From: an uncultured virus (IMG/VR IMGVR_UViG_3300022555_000047)
Lineage: Duplodnaviria > Heunggongvirae > Uroviricota > Caudoviricetes
DNA length: 64,000 nucleotides
IMG/VR virus record: IMGVR_UViG_3300022555_000047
Direction: 5' to 3' (one strand)
The notes below the pieces were generated by a model. That model was not told the DNA's origin. It did no database searches and worked only from the letters and a program-made list of their open reading frames with translations. The position numbers and the translations under genes were made by a program. Positions 8,848-52,209 of this stretch are shown here, piece after piece. Position 1 is the stretch's first letter. Every line of letters begins with the position of its first letter.

Positions 8848-10041
8848 TTATAAGGCTTTTATCACTTTATTTATCGCATTAGAAAAATCATCTCCGTATT
8901 GCCAATTTTTCTTTACAAAGTCATAAGCATTTTCGCCAAGTTGTTTTCTTTTTTCTTCATGTAAGATTAAATCTTCAAGTGCATCAAACCATTCATTTTG
9001 TTTTACAAGTAATCCAGTCTTTTCGTGTTGAATAGTTTGTCTACCAAAACAATTAAAATAGTATGGATAAACTTTTGATGCAATTACTGGAATTTTATAC
9101 ATTGAATATTCCATCCATTTAATATGAGATTTGCAACGAGTAAAAGCACAGTCAGTTAATGGAGCTATCCCAATATCCCATTTAAGTGAAGCAAGATATT
9201 TAGGATATTCTTTAAAAGTCCAAGTTGAAGGTAAAATATCACAACGTTTTTTAGCTTCATCACTGAATGGTGTAAATAATTTAATATTGCTTTTTCCTAA
9301 AGCTCCCAAACTTTCAAAATATACATTTTGGTATTTTTCCATTATCTTGGCTAGAGCAGGGAACATCATTTCTAAATCATCATCATGAGAATTTGAACCT
9401 GAATATCCTATTACTATTTTATCTTTGTGTTTTGGAGCTGGCTTAAATTTCCAAATATTGGCATCATTCATGTTAGGAATTACAAAAATCTTTTTATCCA
9501 TTTTATAAACTTTCTTTAAATGTTCGGCTACTTTTTGTTTAAGTGGTTCAGTTGATACTGTTATAGCATCTGCAAAAGTTAAAATAGTAGACATAAAAGC
9601 TCTATCTTTTTTTGTTTCTTTAAATCTCTCATAAAGTTGATGGGTTGGTAGCACATCTAAATAGTTATCATCTAAATCAATTACTACTTTCTTTTTATAT
9701 TTATCTCGGTGATAAAAAATAGCTGAAGCTAAATGTGGGTCAGTAAAATAACAAGTCCAAAAAACATCATACTCTTTAAATATACGAGACCATCTCTGTT
9801 CTAGTGTTTCACCTTTCTTATCTAGTTTAACCCCTACTACTGAAACATCATGTCCTTTTAAATATTTAGCAGGTTGCACTATGCGATAGTATCCTACTCC
9901 ACCATAACCATCTTGTGATTGTCTGGCTACACTAGCACCAAAGTCATTACGAAAAAAAAGAACTTTCTTAACTTTGTTTTTTTTGTGGTCTTCCATAAGT
10001 ATGAGTTTTATAATGACAAGATTTACATAATGTTCGACCAT
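8848..10041 (-). CDS. glycosyltransferase (GT-B, GT4-like); probable start at 9996
   Basis: GGVGYYR, IDLDD, IGYSGSNSH, DIGIAPL, KSHIKWMEYS motifs. Confidence 0.85.
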   Translation of the reverse strand: MVEHYVNLVIIKLILMEDHKKNKVKKVLFFRNDFGASVARQSQDGYGGVGYYRIVQPAKYLKGHDVSVVGVKLDKKGETLEQRWSRIFKEYDVFWTCYFTDPHLASAIFYHRDKYKKKVVIDLDDNYLDVLPTHQLYERFKETKKDRAFMSTILTFADAITVSTEPLKQKVAEHLKKVYKMDKKIFVIPNMNDANIWKFKPAPKHKDKIVIGYSGSNSHDDDLEMMFPALAKIMEKYQNVYFESLGALGKSNIKLFTPFSDEAKKRCDILPSTWTFKEYPKYLASLKWDIGIAPLTDCAFTRCKSHIKWMEYSMYKIPVIASKVYPYYFNCFGRQTIQHEKTGLLVKQNEWFDALEDLILHEEKRKQLGENAYDFVKKNWQYGDDFSNAINKVIKAL

Positions 10042-10549
10042 TATTTATATTCCAAAGTTCATCACAATTTATTGCTTTTTCTACACAATCAATTTTACAC
10101 TCTTGGACAATTAAAGCTAATGGTTTTATATGGTCAGCTTCAATATAGCCTCCTCTCATAAAACAATGCTGACAAGTATAATTATCTCTTTTATAAATAT
10201 CTGAACGCCATAGACGATAATTAAAAGTATTTCTTATTTGCTGATGCAAAGAACTTAATCCACCTTTCCAATTATTATTTAATATACCAATTCTTTTTCT
10301 CATTGCTATTGCTGTTTGTGGTTTTGGTTTCCCTTTATGTGCTAAACTTATTTTCTTTTTAACTTCTTCAGAAACTTTATAACCTAATTTAGCTTTTCGC
10401 ATATTATCTCTCCATTCTTTTGAAAATGGTGGTCTAGGTCTTCCTTTATTTATATATGGTTTACTTTTTTTTCTTATTTTTTTATTTTTCATTTCTTTTT
10501 GGGTCATTAAAATTACCTGATAAGTTCTTATGCCAATGCATCTCAGCAA
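9968..10549 (-). CDS. NUMOD3-HNH homing endonuclease (probable start near 10492)
   Basis: SEEVKKKISLAHKG; RDNYTCQHC...ADHIKP...NGRTLCKSCH. Confidence 0.9.
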   Translation of the reverse strand: MLRCIGIRTYQVILMTQKEMKNKKIRKKSKPYINKGRPRPPFSKEWRDNMRKAKLGYKVSEEVKKKISLAHKGKPKPQTAIAMRKRIGILNNNWKGGLSSLHQQIRNTFNYRLWRSDIYKRDNYTCQHCFMRGGYIEADHIKPLALIVQECKIDCVEKAINCDELWNINNGRTLCKSCHYKTHTYGRPQKKQS

Positions 10550-11132
10550 TATCAGCTAATATTGCTTTACCATCTTTTTCTTCCCAGTTTAAATCTATTG
10601 CATTTACAACGACACCTGATTCGTCTATCGCAGGCATAATACTTAATTGGTCTCGTCTTGAATATCTACAATAATCAGCCCACCAAGCCTCGTTAAAGCG
10701 TCTGGTTCGTTCATTGTTGCGTCTAATAATAAATCCACCTTGTAAGAAACCTATGTCCTTTGGAAAGCCCATATCTTCATAGTGTTTGGCTTGTTCTATG
10801 ATGGTTTCAACGTCATCCATCTGTAATTTAGCTACAACCATAGCTTCTTTATATAAACAACCTCTTGAATGTTTAAGCATAGCCATATCGTAGCCATCCA
10901 TATAACGCTTAATAAGTTCTTCAGGTGGAATTAAGAGTTTCATATTACCATCATGGTAAATAGAAAATGTTTCGTTAAAATATTTATGTGATAGTATTTT
11001 CTGTATTCTTGAGTTTCTTCGAGGGTCTCTAAACCTATCATAAGCATCATTGAAAATAGTTATCGGATAATCTCTTTTAATAGGAGCATCCTTATTCCCC
11101 GTAATACAGGTATAAACGACTATATCTTTCAT
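10482..11132 (-). CDS. DUF616-like glycosyltransferase domain protein
   Basis: VVYTCITG, KILSHKYF, RRDQLS motifs. Confidence 0.75.
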   Translation of the reverse strand: MKDIVVYTCITGNKDAPIKRDYPITIFNDAYDRFRDPRRNSRIQKILSHKYFNETFSIYHDGNMKLLIPPEELIKRYMDGYDMAMLKHSRGCLYKEAMVVAKLQMDDVETIIEQAKHYEDMGFPKDIGFLQGGFIIRRNNERTRRFNEAWWADYCRYSRRDQLSIMPAIDESGVVVNAIDLNWEEKDGKAILADIAEMHWHKNLSGNFNDPKRNEK

Positions 11133-11749
11133 AAAAAGTTTTTATATTTCCAACCATAAGTATCTGTATTTTTATGACATTCAATACAGAGTGTTCGACC
11201 ATTATTTAGGTTCCATAATTCTTCACATTCAAATCCTTTCTCTGTTGAATCAATTTTATTTTCTCTGATTATTAAAAAGAAAGGTTTGATGTGGTCTGCA
11301 TGTAATTTATTGCCATGTTCTTTTCCGCCAATAACACATTGAAAATTATCTCTAGTAAATATATCACTTCGCCACTGTCTATATTTTAGTGATTCCCTTA
11401 ACAGATGTATAACAGAAGATAATCCTCCTTGCCAGTTTGGATTAAGTTCTTTTCTTCTTTTCAGACTCATTTTAAGTCTAGCTTCTGGGGAAATAATATT
11501 TACTAAACCTTTTTTCCATGATGTTTTACCCTTACGGGATAGACTCATATTGCGTTTAATTTCTTCTGATAGTTTGGAACCTCGCATTTTTACATAATGA
11601 GGAGCCATTGCAAGTTTTATTTTTCTTTTTGTTTCTTCAGACACAATTCTTCCTTTCTGAAAACCGAGCATTCCTTTATTCCAAGGAATATGTCCTTTAA
11701 GTTTTTCGCTAAGTTTATTTTTTGTTTCTTGTGTTTGTTTGCGTCCCAT
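11129..11749 (-). CDS. NUMOD3-HNH homing endonuclease
   Basis: IPWNKG, SEETKRKI; RDNFQC...ADHIKP...NGRTLCIECH. Confidence 0.9.
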   Translation of the reverse strand: MGRKQTQETKNKLSEKLKGHIPWNKGMLGFQKGRIVSEETKRKIKLAMAPHYVKMRGSKLSEEIKRNMSLSRKGKTSWKKGLVNIISPEARLKMSLKRRKELNPNWQGGLSSVIHLLRESLKYRQWRSDIFTRDNFQCVIGGKEHGNKLHADHIKPFFLIIRENKIDSTEKGFECEELWNLNNGRTLCIECHKNTDTYGWKYKNFL

Positions 11750-21439: not shown

Positions 21440-22708
21440 TTAGTTAAAACTTACATTTCTATTTCTATTTTGTGCAACTCTTTGAGCTGTAAACATATCT
21501 GGTTTAATTGGTTCACTCGCCCCCCAAACTGCTAAGGCTAAACTCATAACTCTGTCATCGTGCAATCCTTCGGGTGCTTTTACTTTTATTTTACCTTGTT
21601 CGCTTAAAGAATATTGAAATGATTCAAGTTCAGCAATTAGTCCTTCATCATCAGGTATTTTTATTTTATCTTGTTCTAATAAAATTGCAAGATTATTTAA
21701 TATATTCATACGAGAAGTTTCAGTAAATTTAAAACCTGCTCCTTCATTACAAATATTTAATCCACGAGCTTTTAAATCTTCCACTATTGGGTCGCCAACC
21801 CCTGTGCTATCAGGCATAATCAAAGCATTATTAAATCTACGAGCCATAGCTTCAATTTTTGCTTTCTGTAAATTATAATCTATTTGGTTAAAGCGTTCTT
21901 GTTGATGAACTATAAAAGTATTCAAGTTAAAAGGTGTAAGCACAGTCCAGTCATTATATTTAGCTAAATCTACTCCTAGTTGATATTCTCCATCTTCATT
22001 CAACATATAATCTTTTGGATAGCAATTTTGGTTTATTCTTTTAAAGAATTGACTAGCACCTTCTAAAAATTTACATTCATATTCTTGTTCGTAAAGTGCT
22101 TGAGGAGTATTGCGTCTTATCTCGGCTAGTTCTTCTTCGGTAAATACGTTTGTATCTTTAACTGATTTTACAGAAGTAAACCATAATGGGTTCTCTTTCG
22201 CTTTCACTAATAGCTTCCAAGAGTGGTTTTTACCTTTTGGAGTAAAGACAAAGGTTGCAGTTCCACCATTTTCCATCAAGACAGGTTGGAAAATAGCAGT
22301 CCATATTTGTTCTGGTTGTTCTGAGAACTCGTCAAAGACTACATCAAAAGGGTTTGTCCCTCGGTGCTTATCGTAATCTTCTGCTCCAATAAATCTTTGG
22401 ATAACTCCATTCTTGTAGTAAATTGCTAGTTCGCTGTCATTTTTCTTGTCGTAAAGTTCTTTGGGAATATGGTCGTTTATTAAAACATCCCAAACAACTT
22501 GCTTGGCTTGTTTGTATGTCGGAAGAACATAATAACAAACACCTGGCTCGGTTCTTTTAAAAATTCTTTTTACTTGTTTATTTAAAGCAGTTCTTGTTTT
22601 TCTAGCTCGTCTATGCCAAACGAGAATTGCAAATCTATGCGTATCTTTTAAATATTCTATCTGGTAACTGGTGGGAGCTTTAAAATTATGGGGTATCGTT
22701 ATTTCCAT
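21440..22708 (-). CDS. terL: terminase large subunit, phage A
   Basis: WHRRARKT Walker A variant, VVFDE Walker B, TPKGKNH, GVDLA, DSTGVG, HDDRVMSLALA. Confidence 0.93.
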   Translation of the reverse strand: MEITIPHNFKAPTSYQIEYLKDTHRFAILVWHRRARKTRTALNKQVKRIFKRTEPGVCYYVLPTYKQAKQVVWDVLINDHIPKELYDKKNDSELAIYYKNGVIQRFIGAEDYDKHRGTNPFDVVFDEFSEQPEQIWTAIFQPVLMENGGTATFVFTPKGKNHSWKLLVKAKENPLWFTSVKSVKDTNVFTEEELAEIRRNTPQALYEQEYECKFLEGASQFFKRINQNCYPKDYMLNEDGEYQLGVDLAKYNDWTVLTPFNLNTFIVHQQERFNQIDYNLQKAKIEAMARRFNNALIMPDSTGVGDPIVEDLKARGLNICNEGAGFKFTETSRMNILNNLAILLEQDKIKIPDDEGLIAELESFQYSLSEQGKIKVKAPEGLHDDRVMSLALAVWGASEPIKPDMFTAQRVAQNRNRNVSFN

Positions 22709-24034: not shown

Positions 24035-24547
24035 TTAAAATGTTTTTCTTAATAATTTCAACCAGTAATCACGATTGTAATTTGTTTTTACGTGACATCT
24101 TATACAAACACTTATCAGATTATTTGGGTTGCAGTTTTCTTTGTTGTAGTCTATGTGATGAACAGACAAAGCTCTATCCCCTTGTTTTTCACCACAAATT
24201 TGACAAGTATATTTATCTCTCTCCCGAATACTCTGTCTTAAGGTTCTAGTCCAATCAAGAGAATAAGGTTCAAAAGATTTTCCTCCTCTCCAGTTTGGTG
24301 ATAGTGCCCCTGTTTTTCCAAACATATAAGAGAGTTTTCCTTTATGTGCTTTACTCATCTTTTCTATGGTTTCTGTGTTGTGTTTCTTACCACGCATTCC
24401 ACAAGAAGAAGTATGTCTACTACTTTCCTTCATTCTTTTTCTCGTGATTTCAGAAAGTTTCCACCCTCCTCTTTTCTTTGTTCTCTCGTAAATTCCAACT
24501 TTTCCTTTTAAGGCACCTATTTTTCTTTTATATACTCCCTTTGGCAT
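24035..24547 (-). CDS. NUMOD3-HNH homing endonuclease
   Basis: MPKGVY, GKKHNTETIEKMSKAHKG, RDKYTCQIC...VHHIDY...NLISVCIRCH. Confidence 0.9.
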   Translation of the reverse strand: MPKGVYKRKIGALKGKVGIYERTKKRGGWKLSEITRKRMKESSRHTSSCGMRGKKHNTETIEKMSKAHKGKLSYMFGKTGALSPNWRGGKSFEPYSLDWTRTLRQSIRERDKYTCQICGEKQGDRALSVHHIDYNKENCNPNNLISVCIRCHVKTNYNRDYWLKLLRKTF

Positions 24548-45738: not shown

Positions 45739-47088
45739 TTAATTTAACCCCGGTGTTTGATATGGAGTATCCGACACGTACTCCTCTTGTCTATTTGCTT
45801 TGCGTTCTTGTAAAAATGCTAATCTGTTTTTGCTTGGCCCGACGATGGTTGGTTTTATCTCTGCGTGTTTCCCTACTGATGCACTGTTGATACTTGGAGT
45901 TTCGTATGGTGTTTCGGGAACGTAGGCATCTTCTGGCTCTGCATCAGGTATTAAATCGGCTATTGCGTAGCGTATAGCGTCCATAGCGTGGTTATTTATA
46001 TCAATTGGGTCATTTGTCACTCTTCCGTCGACATCTTTCAAATAAACGTAAGTCCTGTATTCTTTCCACCCGTGAACTGATCGCTTTGTCATCCATATCT
46101 TTCGGCTCTTCACTGCATCGATTCCGTGTTGAATACTTCCCTTTCCTTTTTTACTTCCAATAATCAATACTCCGTGCATTGCTATTTCTGCGATACTCTT
46201 CGGCTCTGCGCTGTCTCCGATGGTGAGCGGTTGATTTCTTCCGATTTGTTTTGCTATTTCATTATTAAATAATCCTTTCTGATATAAAACTTCATCGAGA
46301 ATAAACCCTCCGTTCCATTCGCAAATATCAAACAGTGCCGTCGGGTCATTTGTGTATCCGAAGTCAAGTCCTTTTCGAACGAGTCTTGCTTCCTTTGGTA
46401 TCTCGTCAATCATATCCCATCCTTTGTAAACATTCTCTTCGTTCTCTCCATCGAGCCCGAGTCCATAAACTGTCCACCATGATTTATTGTGTTTGTGCGA
46501 TTCAATTTCTTGCACAGTCGTTTGGTCTAGTGCTTCATTGTCTTTGTAGGTTAGTGTTATATAATCCACGTCATCTCTGTGTGGAAGTATTTCTGTGTGA
46601 AACCAAAACGGAGCACTCGGGTTCCAGTCCATCCATACTGTTTTTCTTGTACGTGCCATCAGCTGATCTACTATCTCCCATGGTAGTGGGTTGCATTCAT
46701 TTAAAAATAAAACATCACGACGTGGGCCGTGTGCTTTTGAGTAGGTGTCTACCGACATAAATTCTAAAATGTTCCCCGTTTCGAATGTATAAAAATTCTT
46801 ACTTGCATTCCATTGGTTGTCATCCCAATAACCTGCGTCTTGCATTATGTTTTTAAAATCTCGGATTGCTCCGAGTGAGAGGTGAGGAAATGATTCGGAT
46901 GCCACTGTGATTATTTCTTTTTGTCCACACGAAGTATTGCAGTAATCAATACACCATATTAAAATAGAAATTGTCTTCGATGCTGACGTTCCTCCTTTCA
47001 CTGCACGAATTCTTTTTGTCAGTGCAAATATTTTTTCTGTTGCAGTTGTGTCTTTGTATATTTTATTTTTTGCGAGATTTTCCTCCAT
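45739..47088 (-). CDS. terL: terminase large subunit (PBSX family), phage B
   Basis: GGTSASKT, GPRRDVLFLNE, DWNPS, GLDFGYTNDP, DSAEPKSI, NHAMDAIRY. Confidence 0.95.
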   Translation of the reverse strand: MEENLAKNKIYKDTTATEKIFALTKRIRAVKGGTSASKTISILIWCIDYCNTSCGQKEIITVASESFPHLSLGAIRDFKNIMQDAGYWDDNQWNASKNFYTFETGNILEFMSVDTYSKAHGPRRDVLFLNECNPLPWEIVDQLMARTRKTVWMDWNPSAPFWFHTEILPHRDDVDYITLTYKDNEALDQTTVQEIESHKHNKSWWTVYGLGLDGENEENVYKGWDMIDEIPKEARLVRKGLDFGYTNDPTALFDICEWNGGFILDEVLYQKGLFNNEIAKQIGRNQPLTIGDSAEPKSIAEIAMHGVLIIGSKKGKGSIQHGIDAVKSRKIWMTKRSVHGWKEYRTYVYLKDVDGRVTNDPIDINNHAMDAIRYAIADLIPDAEPEDAYVPETPYETPSINSASVGKHAEIKPTIVGPSKNRLAFLQERKANRQEEYVSDTPYQTPGLN

Positions 47089-48379: not shown

Positions 48380-49372
48380 TTATTTGTCCCATGTGAATTT
48401 ATTTCCGAAGTGTCCCCATTGGGCAGTCGCTTCGTATTGTGGCTCTCTTAATTTTAATCGCTCGATGATTCCCTTTGGTGTCAAGTCGTATTCTTCTCCG
48501 GTAAATTTCCACGAGTCTTCGAGCAGATTGCATTTGATTCCGTCGATGTCGGCGGTTGCCATTACGGGTTGCGACACTCCGATGGCATAGGCTAATTTTA
48601 CTATAACTTCGTGTGCTTTGGTACGTTTCAGGATGTCTACTGCCACCTTTCGGGCCATATAAGTCCCACTCCTATCCACTTTCGTGGCATCTTTGCCTGA
48701 GAATGCTCCTCCTCCGATCGGTATTTGTGGCCCGTAGTTATCTACAGCGAGTTTTCTTCCGGTAACTCCCGTGTCTGCTTCGAAGCCACCCTGAGACCAG
48801 TCGCCTGCTGGGTTTATGTAAATTCTTTCTATTTTTTTTGGATTAAGTGCCATACAACTTTCCATCCATGTTTCTACTTTTGACTTAAGTCTATCAGTTG
48901 GGACATTTTGGAAACTTGCCACGATAGTATCTATAAATCCATCTTCGTTTAGTGTTATCTGAGTTTTGCCATCAAATGGATAAAAATGATATATAAATTT
49001 GCACAAACTTCTCGCTAGGTAAAGTTCTTGGGGTATCATATCCTCGTTATCGTTGCAAGCATATCCGACCATTATCCCTTGGTCTCCTGCTCCACCAGTG
49101 TCTACTCCATTCGCTATCTCGGGACTTTGTTGCACGACGTTTACTTGCACTCCATATTTATCTCCGACGATTTTCTTTGCGATTTCTCGCATGTCCACGT
49201 ATGCTTTGGTGGTGAGTTCGCCTGTGATAGTTATGATACCATGGCCACCCATTGTTTCGATGGCTACCCGACTGTTCGGGTCTTGTTCTAAACATGCATC
49301 CAATATTGCATCGCTTATTCTGTCGCATAATTTATCAGGGTGTTTTGGTGAAACTGATTCAGCTGTTTTCAT
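48380..49372 (-). CDS. metK: S-adenosylmethionine synthetase
   Basis: AESVSPKHPDKLCD, GAGDQG, DGKTQ, GGGAFSGKDATKVDRS. Confidence 0.95.
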   Translation of the reverse strand: MKTAESVSPKHPDKLCDRISDAILDACLEQDPNSRVAIETMGGHGIITITGELTTKAYVDMREIAKKIVGDKYGVQVNVVQQSPEIANGVDTGGAGDQGIMVGYACNDNEDMIPQELYLARSLCKFIYHFYPFDGKTQITLNEDGFIDTIVASFQNVPTDRLKSKVETWMESCMALNPKKIERIYINPAGDWSQGGFEADTGVTGRKLAVDNYGPQIPIGGGAFSGKDATKVDRSGTYMARKVAVDILKRTKAHEVIVKLAYAIGVSQPVMATADIDGIKCNLLEDSWKFTGEEYDLTPKGIIERLKLREPQYEATAQWGHFGNKFTWDK

Positions 49373-49513
49373 TTTGTTTTTTTTGAAATTGTTTTAATAC
49401 GTCTAGTAAATCTGTACCCATTACCATGTTTTTTTGGTCAATGGTCTGAACTAAATAATTTTGATTGCCGTCTTTCATGGCTTTCACCATGACAAAATCT
49501 TGCAATGAATTTA

Positions 49514-50369
49514 TTATTTCTTCCATTTAATTTGCTTTCCGTTTTTAATAATATCGTAACTTCCGACAAAGTCACAATAGCGCTGTACGCAAACATCCAC
49601 GTATTTCGGGTCGAGCTCCTGCCCGTAGCAAATTCTTCCAGTCTTCTCTGAAGCGATAAGAGTTGAACCCCCCCCCTAGGAAAGTATCAAGTACCACGTC
49701 TCCTCGCTTACTGGAGTTGATTATGGCCTCTACAACGAGGGATACTGGCTTCATGGTAGGGTGTTCGGCACTTCGGTTTGGCTTATCATGTCTCCATATA
49801 TCCGTGTGTTGTTTTCGTCTGATCACTTCCCCTTTTTCTACCTTACCTTTTATTTTAACTTTGAAACCTTGGAATTGGATGATTGTGTTCTCTCCGTCAA
49901 ATTCTGATTTTACTGTCGAGAGGTCTTCCCACACATTCGCTCCGTTCCGCGCCGTACAAAAATAATGTTTTAAAACTTTTTTTCCCCACCCGTAGAGGAT
50001 TGGCTCGTATGTGTTTTGGTAGTCGGCCCGGGAGAGGGTGAAGTTATTTTTTACCCATATGATAAAACTCTGCCAATGTCCTCCGGCTTTTTCGAATCCC
50101 TCTCTGAGTGAGTCGAGTTCACTTGAACTCATGCAAACATAAATTCCACCTGATGTATTGTTTATTATTGGAAGCATTGCATTATATAAAAACTCTTTGA
50201 AATTTTCCTTGCTCATCTTGTCGTTTTGGATTCCCTCTCGAGTTCCGAATCCTTTGTCGCCGTTTGCTCCTCCGGTGTAGTTTACGTTATACGGCGGATC
50301 AGTCCAAGTACATTGAGCCATTCTTTTTGTTTCAAATTCTGTTTTGCAATTTTTACAGGTTTTTAACAT
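49514..50369 (-). pseudogene. DNA methyltransferase catalytic half, frameshifted at a G9 tract
   Basis: TDPPY, HPTMKP, LDTFLGGG; removing one G gives GGGSTLIASEKTGRICYGQELDPKYVDV...WKK* ending at 49514. Confidence 0.75.
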
Positions 50370-50805
50370 AATTTTCCCAAGTTAGTTCTTGTAAATACAA
50401 CCCACTACTTCTACTACTCCCTGCTCTCCCTATATATTTTATTTTTTTATCTCTTACACAAATACTATTCGATTGTACTTTTTCGTCAAAAACTAGGTAG
50501 TAAACTTCTTTTCTATCAAGTGCTACTAAGGCAAAAACATCAAAGTCATTTTTTGTATAAAATTTTACTCCTTGCTTTCCTGTTCTCTTGATTTGAAAAA
50601 AATAAATTGGATTACTATTTTCTTTTACTTTTCTCATTTTTTGTGTAGTTTTTACCTGTATTCTAATTAATTTCCCTTTATATTCAGCAACTAAATCATA
50701 ACTGACTCCCTCTCCTGTATCAAATGCTTGAATTCCTTTTGAAAGTAAATCAAATAGCGTGAGATATTGTCCGGCTCTTCCTATATTCAATTCTTTACTT
50801 ATCAT
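50353..50805 (-). CDS. PD-(D/E)XK homing endonuclease (I-Ssp6803I-like) inserted in the methyltransferase
   Basis: GRAGQY, YDLV, RIQVKT, YTKNDFDVFA. Confidence 0.8.
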   Translation of the reverse strand: MISKELNIGRAGQYLTLFDLLSKGIQAFDTGEGVSYDLVAEYKGKLIRIQVKTTQKMRKVKENSNPIYFFQIKRTGKQGVKFYTKNDFDVFALVALDRKEVYYLVFDEKVQSNSICVRDKKIKYIGRAGSSRSSGLYLQELTWENYVKNL

Positions 50806-50835
50806 ATCTCTATTTTACCACCTCTGTGAATTAAA

Positions 50836-51381
50836 TCAATTAAGATATCCACATGAAGGGCATTTCGTACTATTTAATAATTTTTCCACCGCTTCTTCAC
50901 TACACGAGTCTCCACACTGGATGCGGTGTTCTCCGAGTTCGTAAACGTCTCCGAGTTTTGAGATTGGTTTTTTTGGTAAGTCTGGTATGTCGTCGTCTTT
51001 AGCATCGTCCTCGAGGATTAATTCTCGATCAAAACCAGTAAGGTCGAGCATTTCCATTGAGAGCTCTTTGAGTTCGTCGATTACGAGTCCCATGTCCCAC
51101 TCGCTCTCGTTTAATTTATTATCAGCAAGTCTATATGCCTTTGCTTTTTCCTCGCTGATGTCTATTTTAAGTACGGGAATTTCTTTGAGCCCAAGTTTTT
51201 GAGCGGCAAATAATCTCCCGTGTCCTACGATCACAACGTCATTCTTATCCACGACAATCGGTTGGTTGAAGCCAAAAGTTTCGATGCTTTCAGCTATTTT
51301 TGTGATCTGTTTGCCGTCATGCTTTTTTGCATTTCGCTCGTATGGTTTGATGTCTTTGATTTTACGTTGAATTATTTTCAT
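50836..51381 (-). CDS. ParB-like N-domain plus start of DNA methyltransferase (N-terminal half)
   Basis: PYERNAKKH, FGFNQPI, GHGRL, ADNKL, then GDVYELGEHRIQCGDS. Confidence 0.88.
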   Translation of the reverse strand: MKIIQRKIKDIKPYERNAKKHDGKQITKIAESIETFGFNQPIVVDKNDVVIVGHGRLFAAQKLGLKEIPVLKIDISEEKAKAYRLADNKLNESEWDMGLVIDELKELSMEMLDLTGFDRELILEDDAKDDDIPDLPKKPISKLGDVYELGEHRIQCGDSCSEEAVEKLLNSTKCPSCGYLN

Positions 51382-51572
51382 TTTATCCGTAGTAAGGTGT
51401 GCGATCTAGCTTTGGGAAGCCATATCGCTCAATTAATTTTTCGGCCTTTTCGATATGCACTTGTTTTTCGTGTGGATCCTTACAAGCCCGTGCAACTCTC
51501 AAGTGTTTTTCCACGTTAGCAACTTTTTTGTTGTATGATTGCTGTTCTTGTGGAGTTTTGAATGGTTTTATT

Positions 51573-51986
51573 TTATTCATTTTCTTTTTCTAAGTCTGCA
51601 ATCATTTTTTCTATGACCTTTACTTTGATTGTCTCGAGTTCCACCATCTTGTTTTTAGCATTGAGGGCAGTGTCGTTTTCTTCTTTAAACTTTCTCTTTT
51701 CGTAGGCATTGGCTTCTGAGTCTGGACGAGCCATGTATTCTGTCATCATTGCTTCTTGCATTAGTGCCTGTTGCTGATAGCTTAGGAGTTGCACTTCTGC
51801 CTCTTCGAGACTTTTATTTAGTGCTTTTAACTTGTTTTTTTTATCGAACTTTTTTCCCTCTTCGTAAAATACAAAGAACGAATTTTCGTTGTATTTTATT
51901 GGTTGATCTCCTGCGAGACTCACTGTTTTTATAAAATTATTGAAACCATCTACATCTATTAAATCAAATCTTTTTACTTGTATCAT
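51573..51986 (-). CDS. hypothetical coiled-coil protein
   Basis: 137-aa ORF in operon. Confidence 0.5.
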   Translation of the reverse strand: MIQVKRFDLIDVDGFNNFIKTVSLAGDQPIKYNENSFFVFYEEGKKFDKKNKLKALNKSLEEAEVQLLSYQQQALMQEAMMTEYMARPDSEANAYEKRKFKEENDTALNAKNKMVELETIKVKVIEKMIADLEKENE

Positions 51987-52209
51987 TTTTATTTTTTAAT
52001 TACTGGGGTTGCCGGGGACGATTCCGGTTGATTCCCTTTTGCAAAATCTAATACCTGACTAGGAAATTCTTTATTTACGAATTGCACTAGTGAGTTTCCC
52101 ATACCTTGGGCTTGTATCATTCCCTTGTATAGGGTTATTTGAAACCATCCAAATAAAACTAGGGCAATGATTCCCAAGGTGATTGCAATATTTAATAAAA
52201 TTATTTTTT

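Follow-up and report, generated by a model that had tools for sequence, protein, structure and literature searches.

Within a 64,000-nt stretch of DNA from an uncultured virus of the Caudoviricetes (IMG/VR record IMGVR_UViG_3300022555_000047; hereafter the window, in whose positions the coordinates of this locus are given), we resolve a ParB-methyltransferase gene that is broken in two around a free-standing PD-(D/E)XK homing endonuclease gene, with all genes of this feature on the minus strand (Table 1). The upstream part, the N-fragment, comprises ParB, a linker and, of the methyltransferase fold, the first strand and helix; the downstream part, the C-fragment, comprises the remainder. The endonuclease gene, with its own ribosome-binding site (RBS) and a promoter-like element, lies just 5′ of the codons for motif IV (DPPY). 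At the break, the N-fragment ends in a short tail and the C-fragment begins with a short head, each bearing one CxxC pair, or knuckle. By sequence comparison, the termini at such breaks are conserved, recurrent and confined to breaks, and we discuss below whether they may form two halves of a zinc ribbon that joins the enzyme in trans.

Pfam places ParB_N in the N-fragment and N6_N4_Mtase in the C-fragment, and the PHROG methyltransferase family phrog_498 is matched over positions 33–222 by the former and 220–390 by the latter, a complementary coverage at the junction that indicates a clean break. Residues 174–181 of the N-fragment and 1–14 of the C-fragment fall outside this match. In alignment with unbroken homologs, the strand and helix part of the N-fragment reads HRIQCGDS...EKLL (motif III), and the extra DNA relative to these homologs spans ~50322..50874 (551 nt), in agreement with an earlier note on this DNA, made from the letters alone, which had placed an insert of ~550 nt at 50320..50880. 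The CxxC tail, the CxxC head and a C-fragment ATG inside the 3′ end of the endonuclease gene (overlap of 17 nt, 50353–50369) are likewise as that note had described them. The first hexamer of the promoter-like element overlaps the N-fragment stop codon TGA (50836–50838), and AGGTGG within the element (50818–50823) is the putative RBS for the endonuclease, ahead of its ATG; the same promoter-like layout is found in L110, L115, L125, L094 and L104. ParB_N (PF02195) and the beta-class N6/N4 methyltransferase domain (PF01555) are found here on two polypeptides rather than in a single product, and judged by its sequence, the locus is a member of the ParB-methyltransferase family by descent and a split form by structure. 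Identical contigs span both junctions in independent lake-water runs from another study, with no differences. A blastn search of the region against a phage collection returned no match, and the nearest virus record (G001) does not match the region.

Table 1. Features of the split methyltransferase locus, in window positions
Feature	Position	Strand	Description
N-fragment gene	50836..51381	minus	181 aa, ending in GEHRIQCGDSCSEEAVEKLLNSTKCPSCGYLN (KCPSCGYLN) and a stop; ParB N-terminal domain, acidic linker, methyltransferase first strand and helix, 12-residue tail
Tail NSTKCPSCGYLN	50839..50874	minus	absent from unbroken homologs; Cys codons 50860-50862 and 50851-50853
Promoter-like element TTGATT-16-TGGTAAAAT	50812..50839	minus	9/12 matches, TG present; putative function
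PD-(D/E)XK homing endonuclease gene, free-standing	50353..50805	minus	150 aa; Pfam PDDEXK_5 (PF11645)
C-fragment open reading frame (ORF) as it stands	49572..50369	minus	265 aa, starting MLKTCKNCKTEFETKRMAQCTWTDPPYNV (MLKTCKNCK); motif IV (DPPY) to motif I, frame kept to residue 234 and lost after
Head MLKTCKNCKTEFETKR of C-fragment	50322..50369	minus	Cys codons 50355-50357 and 50346-50348
Alternative start Met17 (MAQCTWTDPPY)	50319..50321	minus	would drop the head; picked by a gene caller (P0093, 249 aa)
Run of 9 G in motif I codons	49668..49676	minus (G)	8 in intact relatives, hence one extra base
Undecayed methyltransferase C-terminus, next frame	49514..49675	minus	GGGSTLIASEKTGRICYGQELDPKYVDV...KWKK and a stop

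The endonuclease matches PF11645 with 43.4 bits (cut-off 26.1; E = 4.3e-11). It has 92 homologs, and a profile of 29 homologs matches PDB 2ost_A (E = 4e-4). D37, Q50, V51 and K52 are invariant in 29 endonuclease sequences and would, by analogy, be catalytic. Removal of the insert by RNA or protein splicing, whether by a group I/II intron, an intein or a split intein, is extremely improbable. One member of the endonuclease family (P0006) is named by NCBI a "group I intron-associated PD-(D/E)XK endonuclease", and split inteins around a free endonuclease gene are known in fractured genes (PMC2677866; this and the other papers cited are drawn on in excerpt). However, an Rfam scan of positions 49000–52000 on both strands returned no hits at E ≤ 10, with no group I/II ribozyme core found, and the part of the insert outside the ORFs amounts to only ~30 nt. 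The N-fragment and the endonuclease share one frame with a TGA and a TAA between them, and the C-fragment lies in a different frame; these stops and the frame change exclude an intein, and the tags of 12 and 16 residues are far below the size of an intein half. Moreover, the conserved new ATG and a duplicated strand are retained in relatives that lack the tags. DNA contigs over the locus show no joined forms, although contigs cannot exclude rare ones. It is very likely from these sequence features that, as the earlier note had claimed, a homing endonuclease splits the gene with neither an intron nor an intein, in which case two polypeptides would be made. Translational bypass (over ~470 nt) and programmed DNA excision gave no signal and were set aside.

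Cysteine half-sites at this and other breaks

Among loci with a relative of the endonuclease, we read the junctions of 11 of 37 from viruses and of the best 40 of 80 from metagenomes, and we observe the same split layout in 20 loci with both junctions visible. Tag presence is concordant in these, with both tags in 4, neither in 16 and no discordant case. Class A, with both tags, consists of the window, L110 (tail CTCPHCGQEN, head MSEIICKHCKKSF), L111 (tail CICPHCGAENEID, head MSECTCKKCGKTF) and L115 (tail RKCPHCGQHN, head MSGITCKKCGKIY), where each tail shown is followed by a stop. Each chain thus offers two potential ligands, as CPSC in the tail and CKNC in the head of the window, and the pattern is the same in the other three loci. 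L125 has the tail, and its contig ends within the endonuclease gene. Further tails are found in P0330 and P0369 and further heads in P0165, P0215, P0217 and P0224. The Cys, Pro and Gly codons of the tags vary synonymously between loci. Among the 91 longest ORFs of the window, a CxxC occurs within the last 14 residues of 2 and within the first 16 residues of 5, such that the chance of finding both at one junction is ~1 in 1000, a figure in which recurrence elsewhere is not counted.

Class B consists of 16 distinct loci that have no tags and are split within a few codons of the window's site by the same endonuclease family. Their N-fragments end near EKLM(DGKKADMV), and their C-fragments start M-x-K-x-V-x-I-x-DPPYG. 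DPPY and motif I are invariant in 25 sequences, 7 of them split, which we take as a sign that function is kept in the split forms.

The tags are absent from unbroken relatives. Among relatives of the N-fragment, for which 11 of 17 returned loci were read, the CxxC pair occurs in 0 of the 9 unbroken ones (L002–L010), which run through HRxxCGDS...E(K/R)LMDGKKADMVFTDPPY. Viral contigs gave 32 relatives of the C-fragment. Two knuckles occur in 0 of the 27 that are unbroken (22 distinct), and the remaining five are one upstream frameshift, three contig ends and one unrelated match; L065 has a single incidental CxxC within the HRxxCGDS strand. The knuckle pair is likewise found in 0 of the 108 homologs that have at least 40 residues before DPPY among the best 120 of 5857. 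In the 110 residues before DPPY, a two-knuckle ribbon is found in 0 of 279 fused forms, counted over all sequences fetched, and a single incidental CxxC such as CGDC occurs in 10 of them. The search that gave loci of the second break site (below) also returned ~70 fused relatives, again without a ribbon. No contiguous ribbon precedes DPPY or HRxxCGDS in any frame of 169 loci or in 212 proteins, and a search with a profile of the head gave no internal copy among the best 120 matches. A DNA pattern for a contiguous ribbon had 0 hits in viral contigs, which is a limited negative as the pattern fixes some codons. The alignment with uninterrupted homologs that the earlier note had called for therefore finds the CxxC pair only outside the unbroken forms, and the window has what defines assembly tails, namely additional peptides at the C- and N-termini that flank the break, without counterpart in unbroken homologs.

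Half-sites of the same kind flank a second break site, the boundary between ParB and methyltransferase, around an HNH endonuclease gene or around none. In L099 (141–2147), one ParB-methyltransferase gene lies in three pieces, cut by HNH and then PD-(D/E)XK genes. The ParB piece ends in GEVYQLGKWVVCPQCKKRHNLL (CPQCKKRHNLL) and is followed by the HNH endonuclease gene; the next piece, of 56 residues, starts MTINCDCGHTFEY (MTINCDCGHTF) and continues to HRLMAGDS; the PD-(D/E)XK endonuclease and a C piece without tags then follow, and the Cys half-sites are found at the first break only. In L176, L177 and L179, a ParB ending in GGKVKCPKCGRDHSL overlaps (ATGA) a methyltransferase that starts MICENCQHEF, and a second methyltransferase that starts MKTKCQCGHEF comes next, with no endonuclease between. 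L011 (1793–3969) is similar to L177 (1118–3250), with one ParB tail and two Cys-headed methyltransferases. The class A head pattern (C-T-C-K-K-C-G-x-x-F/Y) also precedes HRxxCGDS in P0218–P0221 and P0243. Finally, in L170–L172 and L178, ParB itself has the whole four-Cys ribbon, and the methyltransferases are without a Cys head. This distribution of cysteines between ParB and methyltransferases gives a ligand count of one four-Cys site per pair. The search for the tags at other insertion sites that the earlier note had suggested thus finds them again, also at a second site where the endonuclease is a different one.

In an IQ-TREE phylogeny of 47 methyltransferase C-domains, the unbroken partner differs from one tagged methyltransferase to another: L110 pairs with P0226 (branch value 100, starred), L115 with P0222 (98, starred) and P0165 with P0179/P0188 (98, starred). 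The distribution of tags on this tree needs 6 changes, and one clade for all 8 tagged rows is rejected by the approximately unbiased (AU) test (log-likelihood difference of 337.7, p = 4.67e-5), from which we conclude that the tags go with the break rather than with the lineage of the enzyme. An earlier FastTree tree, in which the starred branches did not force polyphyly, is not counted as evidence. The window's endonuclease may cleave endonuclease-free alleles and home into them, as is suggested indirectly by relatives that lie 5′ of the DPPY codons in several methyltransferase subfamilies and by the polyphyly of the tagged alleles.

Relatives of the endonuclease also lie 5′ of DPPY next to a duplicated N-terminal segment (L032, L120, L122 and L252). 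More broadly, L032, L120, L122, L028, L117 and L252 (a Paraburkholderia adhaesiva contig) have endonuclease relatives 5′ of DPPY in unrelated methyltransferases. An N-terminal remnant is found on the upstream side, and the gene downstream is complete and has a diverged N-terminus of its own, which is a third way of coping with an insertion. A scan of genome contigs with the endonuclease profile gave 6 loci, of which the 2 read (L250 and L252) have no tagged split, and no cultured host was found.

A predicted clasp in trans and its alternatives

In the window, the C-fragment loses its frame ahead of strand beta2, with which the N-fragment strand is predicted to pair. We therefore co-folded the intact L110 pair, with a 34-residue N-piece, the 278-residue C-fragment and Zn as input and alignments that include the window sequence. 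The interface score ipSAE is 0.84, 0.80 and 0.79 in three runs (median 0.80), compared to 0.02 for the best of 3 controls; the mark of 0.80 is reached by 116/157 solved complexes and 2/215 mismatched pairs. At least 96% of contacts are common to the runs, with a predicted local distance difference test (pLDDT) value of at least 87 for the partner. In the models, residues 5–7 of the N-piece contact residues 247–252 of the C-fragment, and tail residues 21–30, 32 and 34 are placed against head residues 2, 4, 6–9, 11, 13 and 15–20. The output carries no metal geometry. The co-fold of the halves with Zn, as the earlier note had proposed, thus passes its controls with the tail contacting the head, and we consider it support for, not proof of, a clasp.

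We propose that the enzyme would be rebuilt non-covalently, with the N-fragment strand placed next to strand beta2 in the sheet. One Zn would be bound by four Cys, two from the tail knuckle (C-P-x-C-G) and two from the head knuckle (C-K-x-C), and the resulting zinc ribbon in trans would stand in for the lost peptide bond. The tags accompany breaks at both the DPPY site and the ParB/methyltransferase boundary and have probably spread among diverged alleles. That the fold is complemented in trans and that both knuckles bind one Zn as a trans ribbon is plausible from the sequences and models, and we lean slightly towards it.

The tags may instead be functional without joining N to C, if the half-sites self-pair (tail to tail or head to head, as in the Rad50 zinc hook) and so dimerise ParB pieces or methyltransferase pieces, or if they bind DNA together with other ligands. 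Dimers are common among ParB proteins and beta-class methyltransferases, tails occur without a methyltransferase partner in L102, L024 and L031, and one tail faces two heads in L176/L177/L179 and L011, such that the stoichiometry is not simply 1:1. On the other hand, the strict concordance of tail and head, the correspondence of a four-Cys ParB with methyltransferases lacking Cys, which fits one shared site, and the predicted placement of the tail against the head all argue for a joint site, and we regard self-pairing as unlikely. It is more unlikely still that the tags are neutral passengers, that is, remnants of zinc-ribbon coding sequence that the endonuclease carried from an earlier site, such as the ParB/methyltransferase boundary, in which case reassembly would owe nothing to them and would be achieved by the complementary fold alone. 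Both break sites do share one head pattern, as expected if sequence had moved between them, and the 16 splits without tags imply that the fold works without them. However, Cys, Pro and Gly are kept through synonymous changes where the endonucleases are only 55–62% identical to that of the window, and heads and tails recur in further cluster representatives, whereas neutral peptides would be expected to decay at such divergence.

Several observations weigh against a clasp at the window or limit its generality. The RBS ahead of the head ATG is weak, and the start at Met17 chosen by the gene caller excludes the head. The window's own C-fragment is frameshifted at the G run. From the 16 class B splits, a clasp is not needed in general. 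In a further class C (L102, L024 and L031), a ParB with a CxxC tail is found with an endonuclease, and the methyltransferase is missing or is a C-terminal remnant of varying length, which indicates that a tail can persist without a partner. Tags are also present with no intervening endonuclease (L176/L177/L179 and L011). The window's endonuclease nests among those of the tag-less class B (branch value 99, starred, with L091/L093; 73% identity), with the other class A endonucleases basal in the endonuclease tree, and so the tags and the endonuclease are not one fixed cassette. In the AU test, the group was defined by the tags, yet after a first tree had been seen. Lastly, halves of a known fold often pass a co-fold by likeness to solved structures, such that the pass mainly means that the fold can be completed in trans.

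Given the endonuclease-less sites, the tags resemble a device of general use wherever ParB and methyltransferase pieces are encoded separately, and not a property of the window's endonuclease. The proposal of the earlier note that a clasp could neutralise the insertion of an endonuclease is partly supported in that the tags are confined to breaks, but 16 related splits do without them and the tags also occur without an endonuclease. What that note had named as contrary to its proposal (both CxxC motifs in uninterrupted homologs, halves that do not interact through Cys and Zn, or a spliced mRNA) did not appear in the analyses run.

The frameshift raises the further possibility that the window locus is a dead gene, in which the methyltransferase was rendered inactive by the insertion and the frameshift and the tags have no bearing on this phage, a reading that is compatible with the others. 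The run has 8 G in the intact L058 (2075) and L115 (2541) and 9 G, with a frameshift inside motif I, in L059 (3140)/L006 (3933) and the window, which makes two intact and two frameshifted genes. Against inactivation, no decay is seen in the 53 residues that follow the shift, which match the C-termini of homologs, there is no other stop or frameshift in either fragment, and the other tagged loci L110, L111 and L115 are intact. In addition, homopolymer length is a common assembly error, and positions 49668–49734 are without read cover in the four runs. We judge a dead gene to be improbable, a shade more so than neutral passengers. The difference between 8 and 9 G would reflect either a homopolymer assembly error or on/off phase variation of the phage methyltransferase, and the window copy would be either mis-assembled or switched off. 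As a separate observation, P0366, P0368, P0381, P0404, P0405, P0421, P0443 and P0467 are N-fragment-sized representatives that go out of frame directly after LMGGG. This loss of frame, at the loop where the endonuclease inserts, suggests a second frameshift-prone G run in unbroken genes.

In its broadest form, our proposal is that phages possess a portable two-part zinc-ribbon clasp that re-joins broken DNA-modification enzymes non-covalently, whichever endonuclease family or modular gene order is involved, and that spreads horizontally with the break from one diverged allele to another. One part would be a C-P-x-C-G knuckle at a C-terminus (~10 residues) and the other a C-K-x-C-(G/K)-K-x-(F/Y) knuckle at an N-terminus (~15 residues), and under modular gene order one ParB tail would serve two methyltransferase heads. 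We hold this broader form tentatively, at a little short of even chances.

Surroundings in the window

Directly downstream of the split methyltransferase lies a complete S-adenosylmethionine synthetase gene (48380–49372). An HNH/NUMOD3 ORF is found at 24038–24547, and NUMOD3-bearing ORFs (9971–10549 and 11132–11749) alternate with glycosyltransferase-like ORFs at 8851–11749. One of the latter matches only the C-terminal part of its family, and there may be further endonuclease-interrupted genes here. The window has two large-terminase genes of different Pfam families, Terminase_6 and Terminase_3 (21443–22708 and 45742–47088, respectively), and all its genes lie on one strand. At only 35.8 kb, the identical IMG/VR record is shorter than the window of 64 kb, which may join two phage genomes.

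Relation to known systems

Selfish endonuclease genes usually sit in introns or inteins, so that the host gene survives, and the one well-studied exception, the NrdA of phage Aeh1, relies on idiosyncratic tails. If the portable clasp is real, fragmented genes would have a third natural remedy, in addition to the splicing of RNA and of proteins, and assembly tails would be a general, evolvable solution that can be recognised from sequence. The clasp would also explain the matching of phage ParB modules to one or several DNA methyltransferases, and it would provide very small metal-dependent heterodimerisation tags for split-protein engineering.

The endonuclease itself resembles the I-Ssp6803I type in its match to PF11645, in the match of its profile to PDB 2ost_A, which we take to be I-Ssp6803I, and in a conserved D...QVK. 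I-Ssp6803I is intron-encoded, whereas the window's enzyme is free-standing and is found in methyltransferase genes 5′ of DPPY. With regard to the enzyme, ParB-methyltransferase fusions are enriched in phages (PMC12704722), a report in whose available text zinc occurs once, in a cited title on an HNH motif. In another system, a DNA-modification enzyme needs a separately encoded phage ParB in trans, and the two are specific to each other as a cognate pair (O'Toole et al. 2026, PMC13229309). That system differs in that the enzyme is a thymidine dioxygenase, and in the excerpted text no stable complex is trapped and zinc is unmentioned.

In the Rad50 zinc hook and the CD4/CD8-Lck zinc clasp, as is predicted here, two Cys per chain share one Zn (PMC5093744, PMC12198760). 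As described in those excerpts, however, they occur in eukaryotic, archaeal or repair proteins whose chains were never one polypeptide, whereas the site predicted here would replace a peptide bond in a broken enzyme and resembles ordinary zinc-ribbon knuckles. A similar genetic layout is seen in the fractured genes, in which split inteins surround a free-standing endonuclease gene (Dassa et al. 2009, PMC2677866). These are also phage-borne enzyme genes in metagenomes, broken around an endonuclease gene that brought control elements along. Their halves are ligated by trans protein splicing, whereas the tags here have 12 and 16 residues and no intein motifs.

The closest likeness is to the Aeh1 nrdA gene split by mobE, where a free-standing phage endonuclease gene likewise splits an enzyme gene with no intron or intein, the downstream gene overlaps the endonuclease gene, and the fragments bear insertion-derived C- and N-terminal tails. 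These tails are essential for activity and were proposed as a general antidote (Crona et al. 2011, PMC3045599). Within the portions of the literature that our search covered, cysteine or zinc tags are not reported for genes split by an endonuclease. The tails of Aeh1 NrdA are unique and charge-complementary with no database matches, zinc is unmentioned in the available text, and they serve the dimerisation of heterodimers and not heterodimer formation (PMC3045599). In the present case, the tags are conserved, recurrent two-Cys peptides. They are seen at two break sites, next to endonuclease genes of two families or in the absence of any, and their role in zinc binding is predicted. Reassembly by insertion-derived tails is therefore already published for Aeh1 NrdA, and what is new here is the recurrent Cys tag pair.

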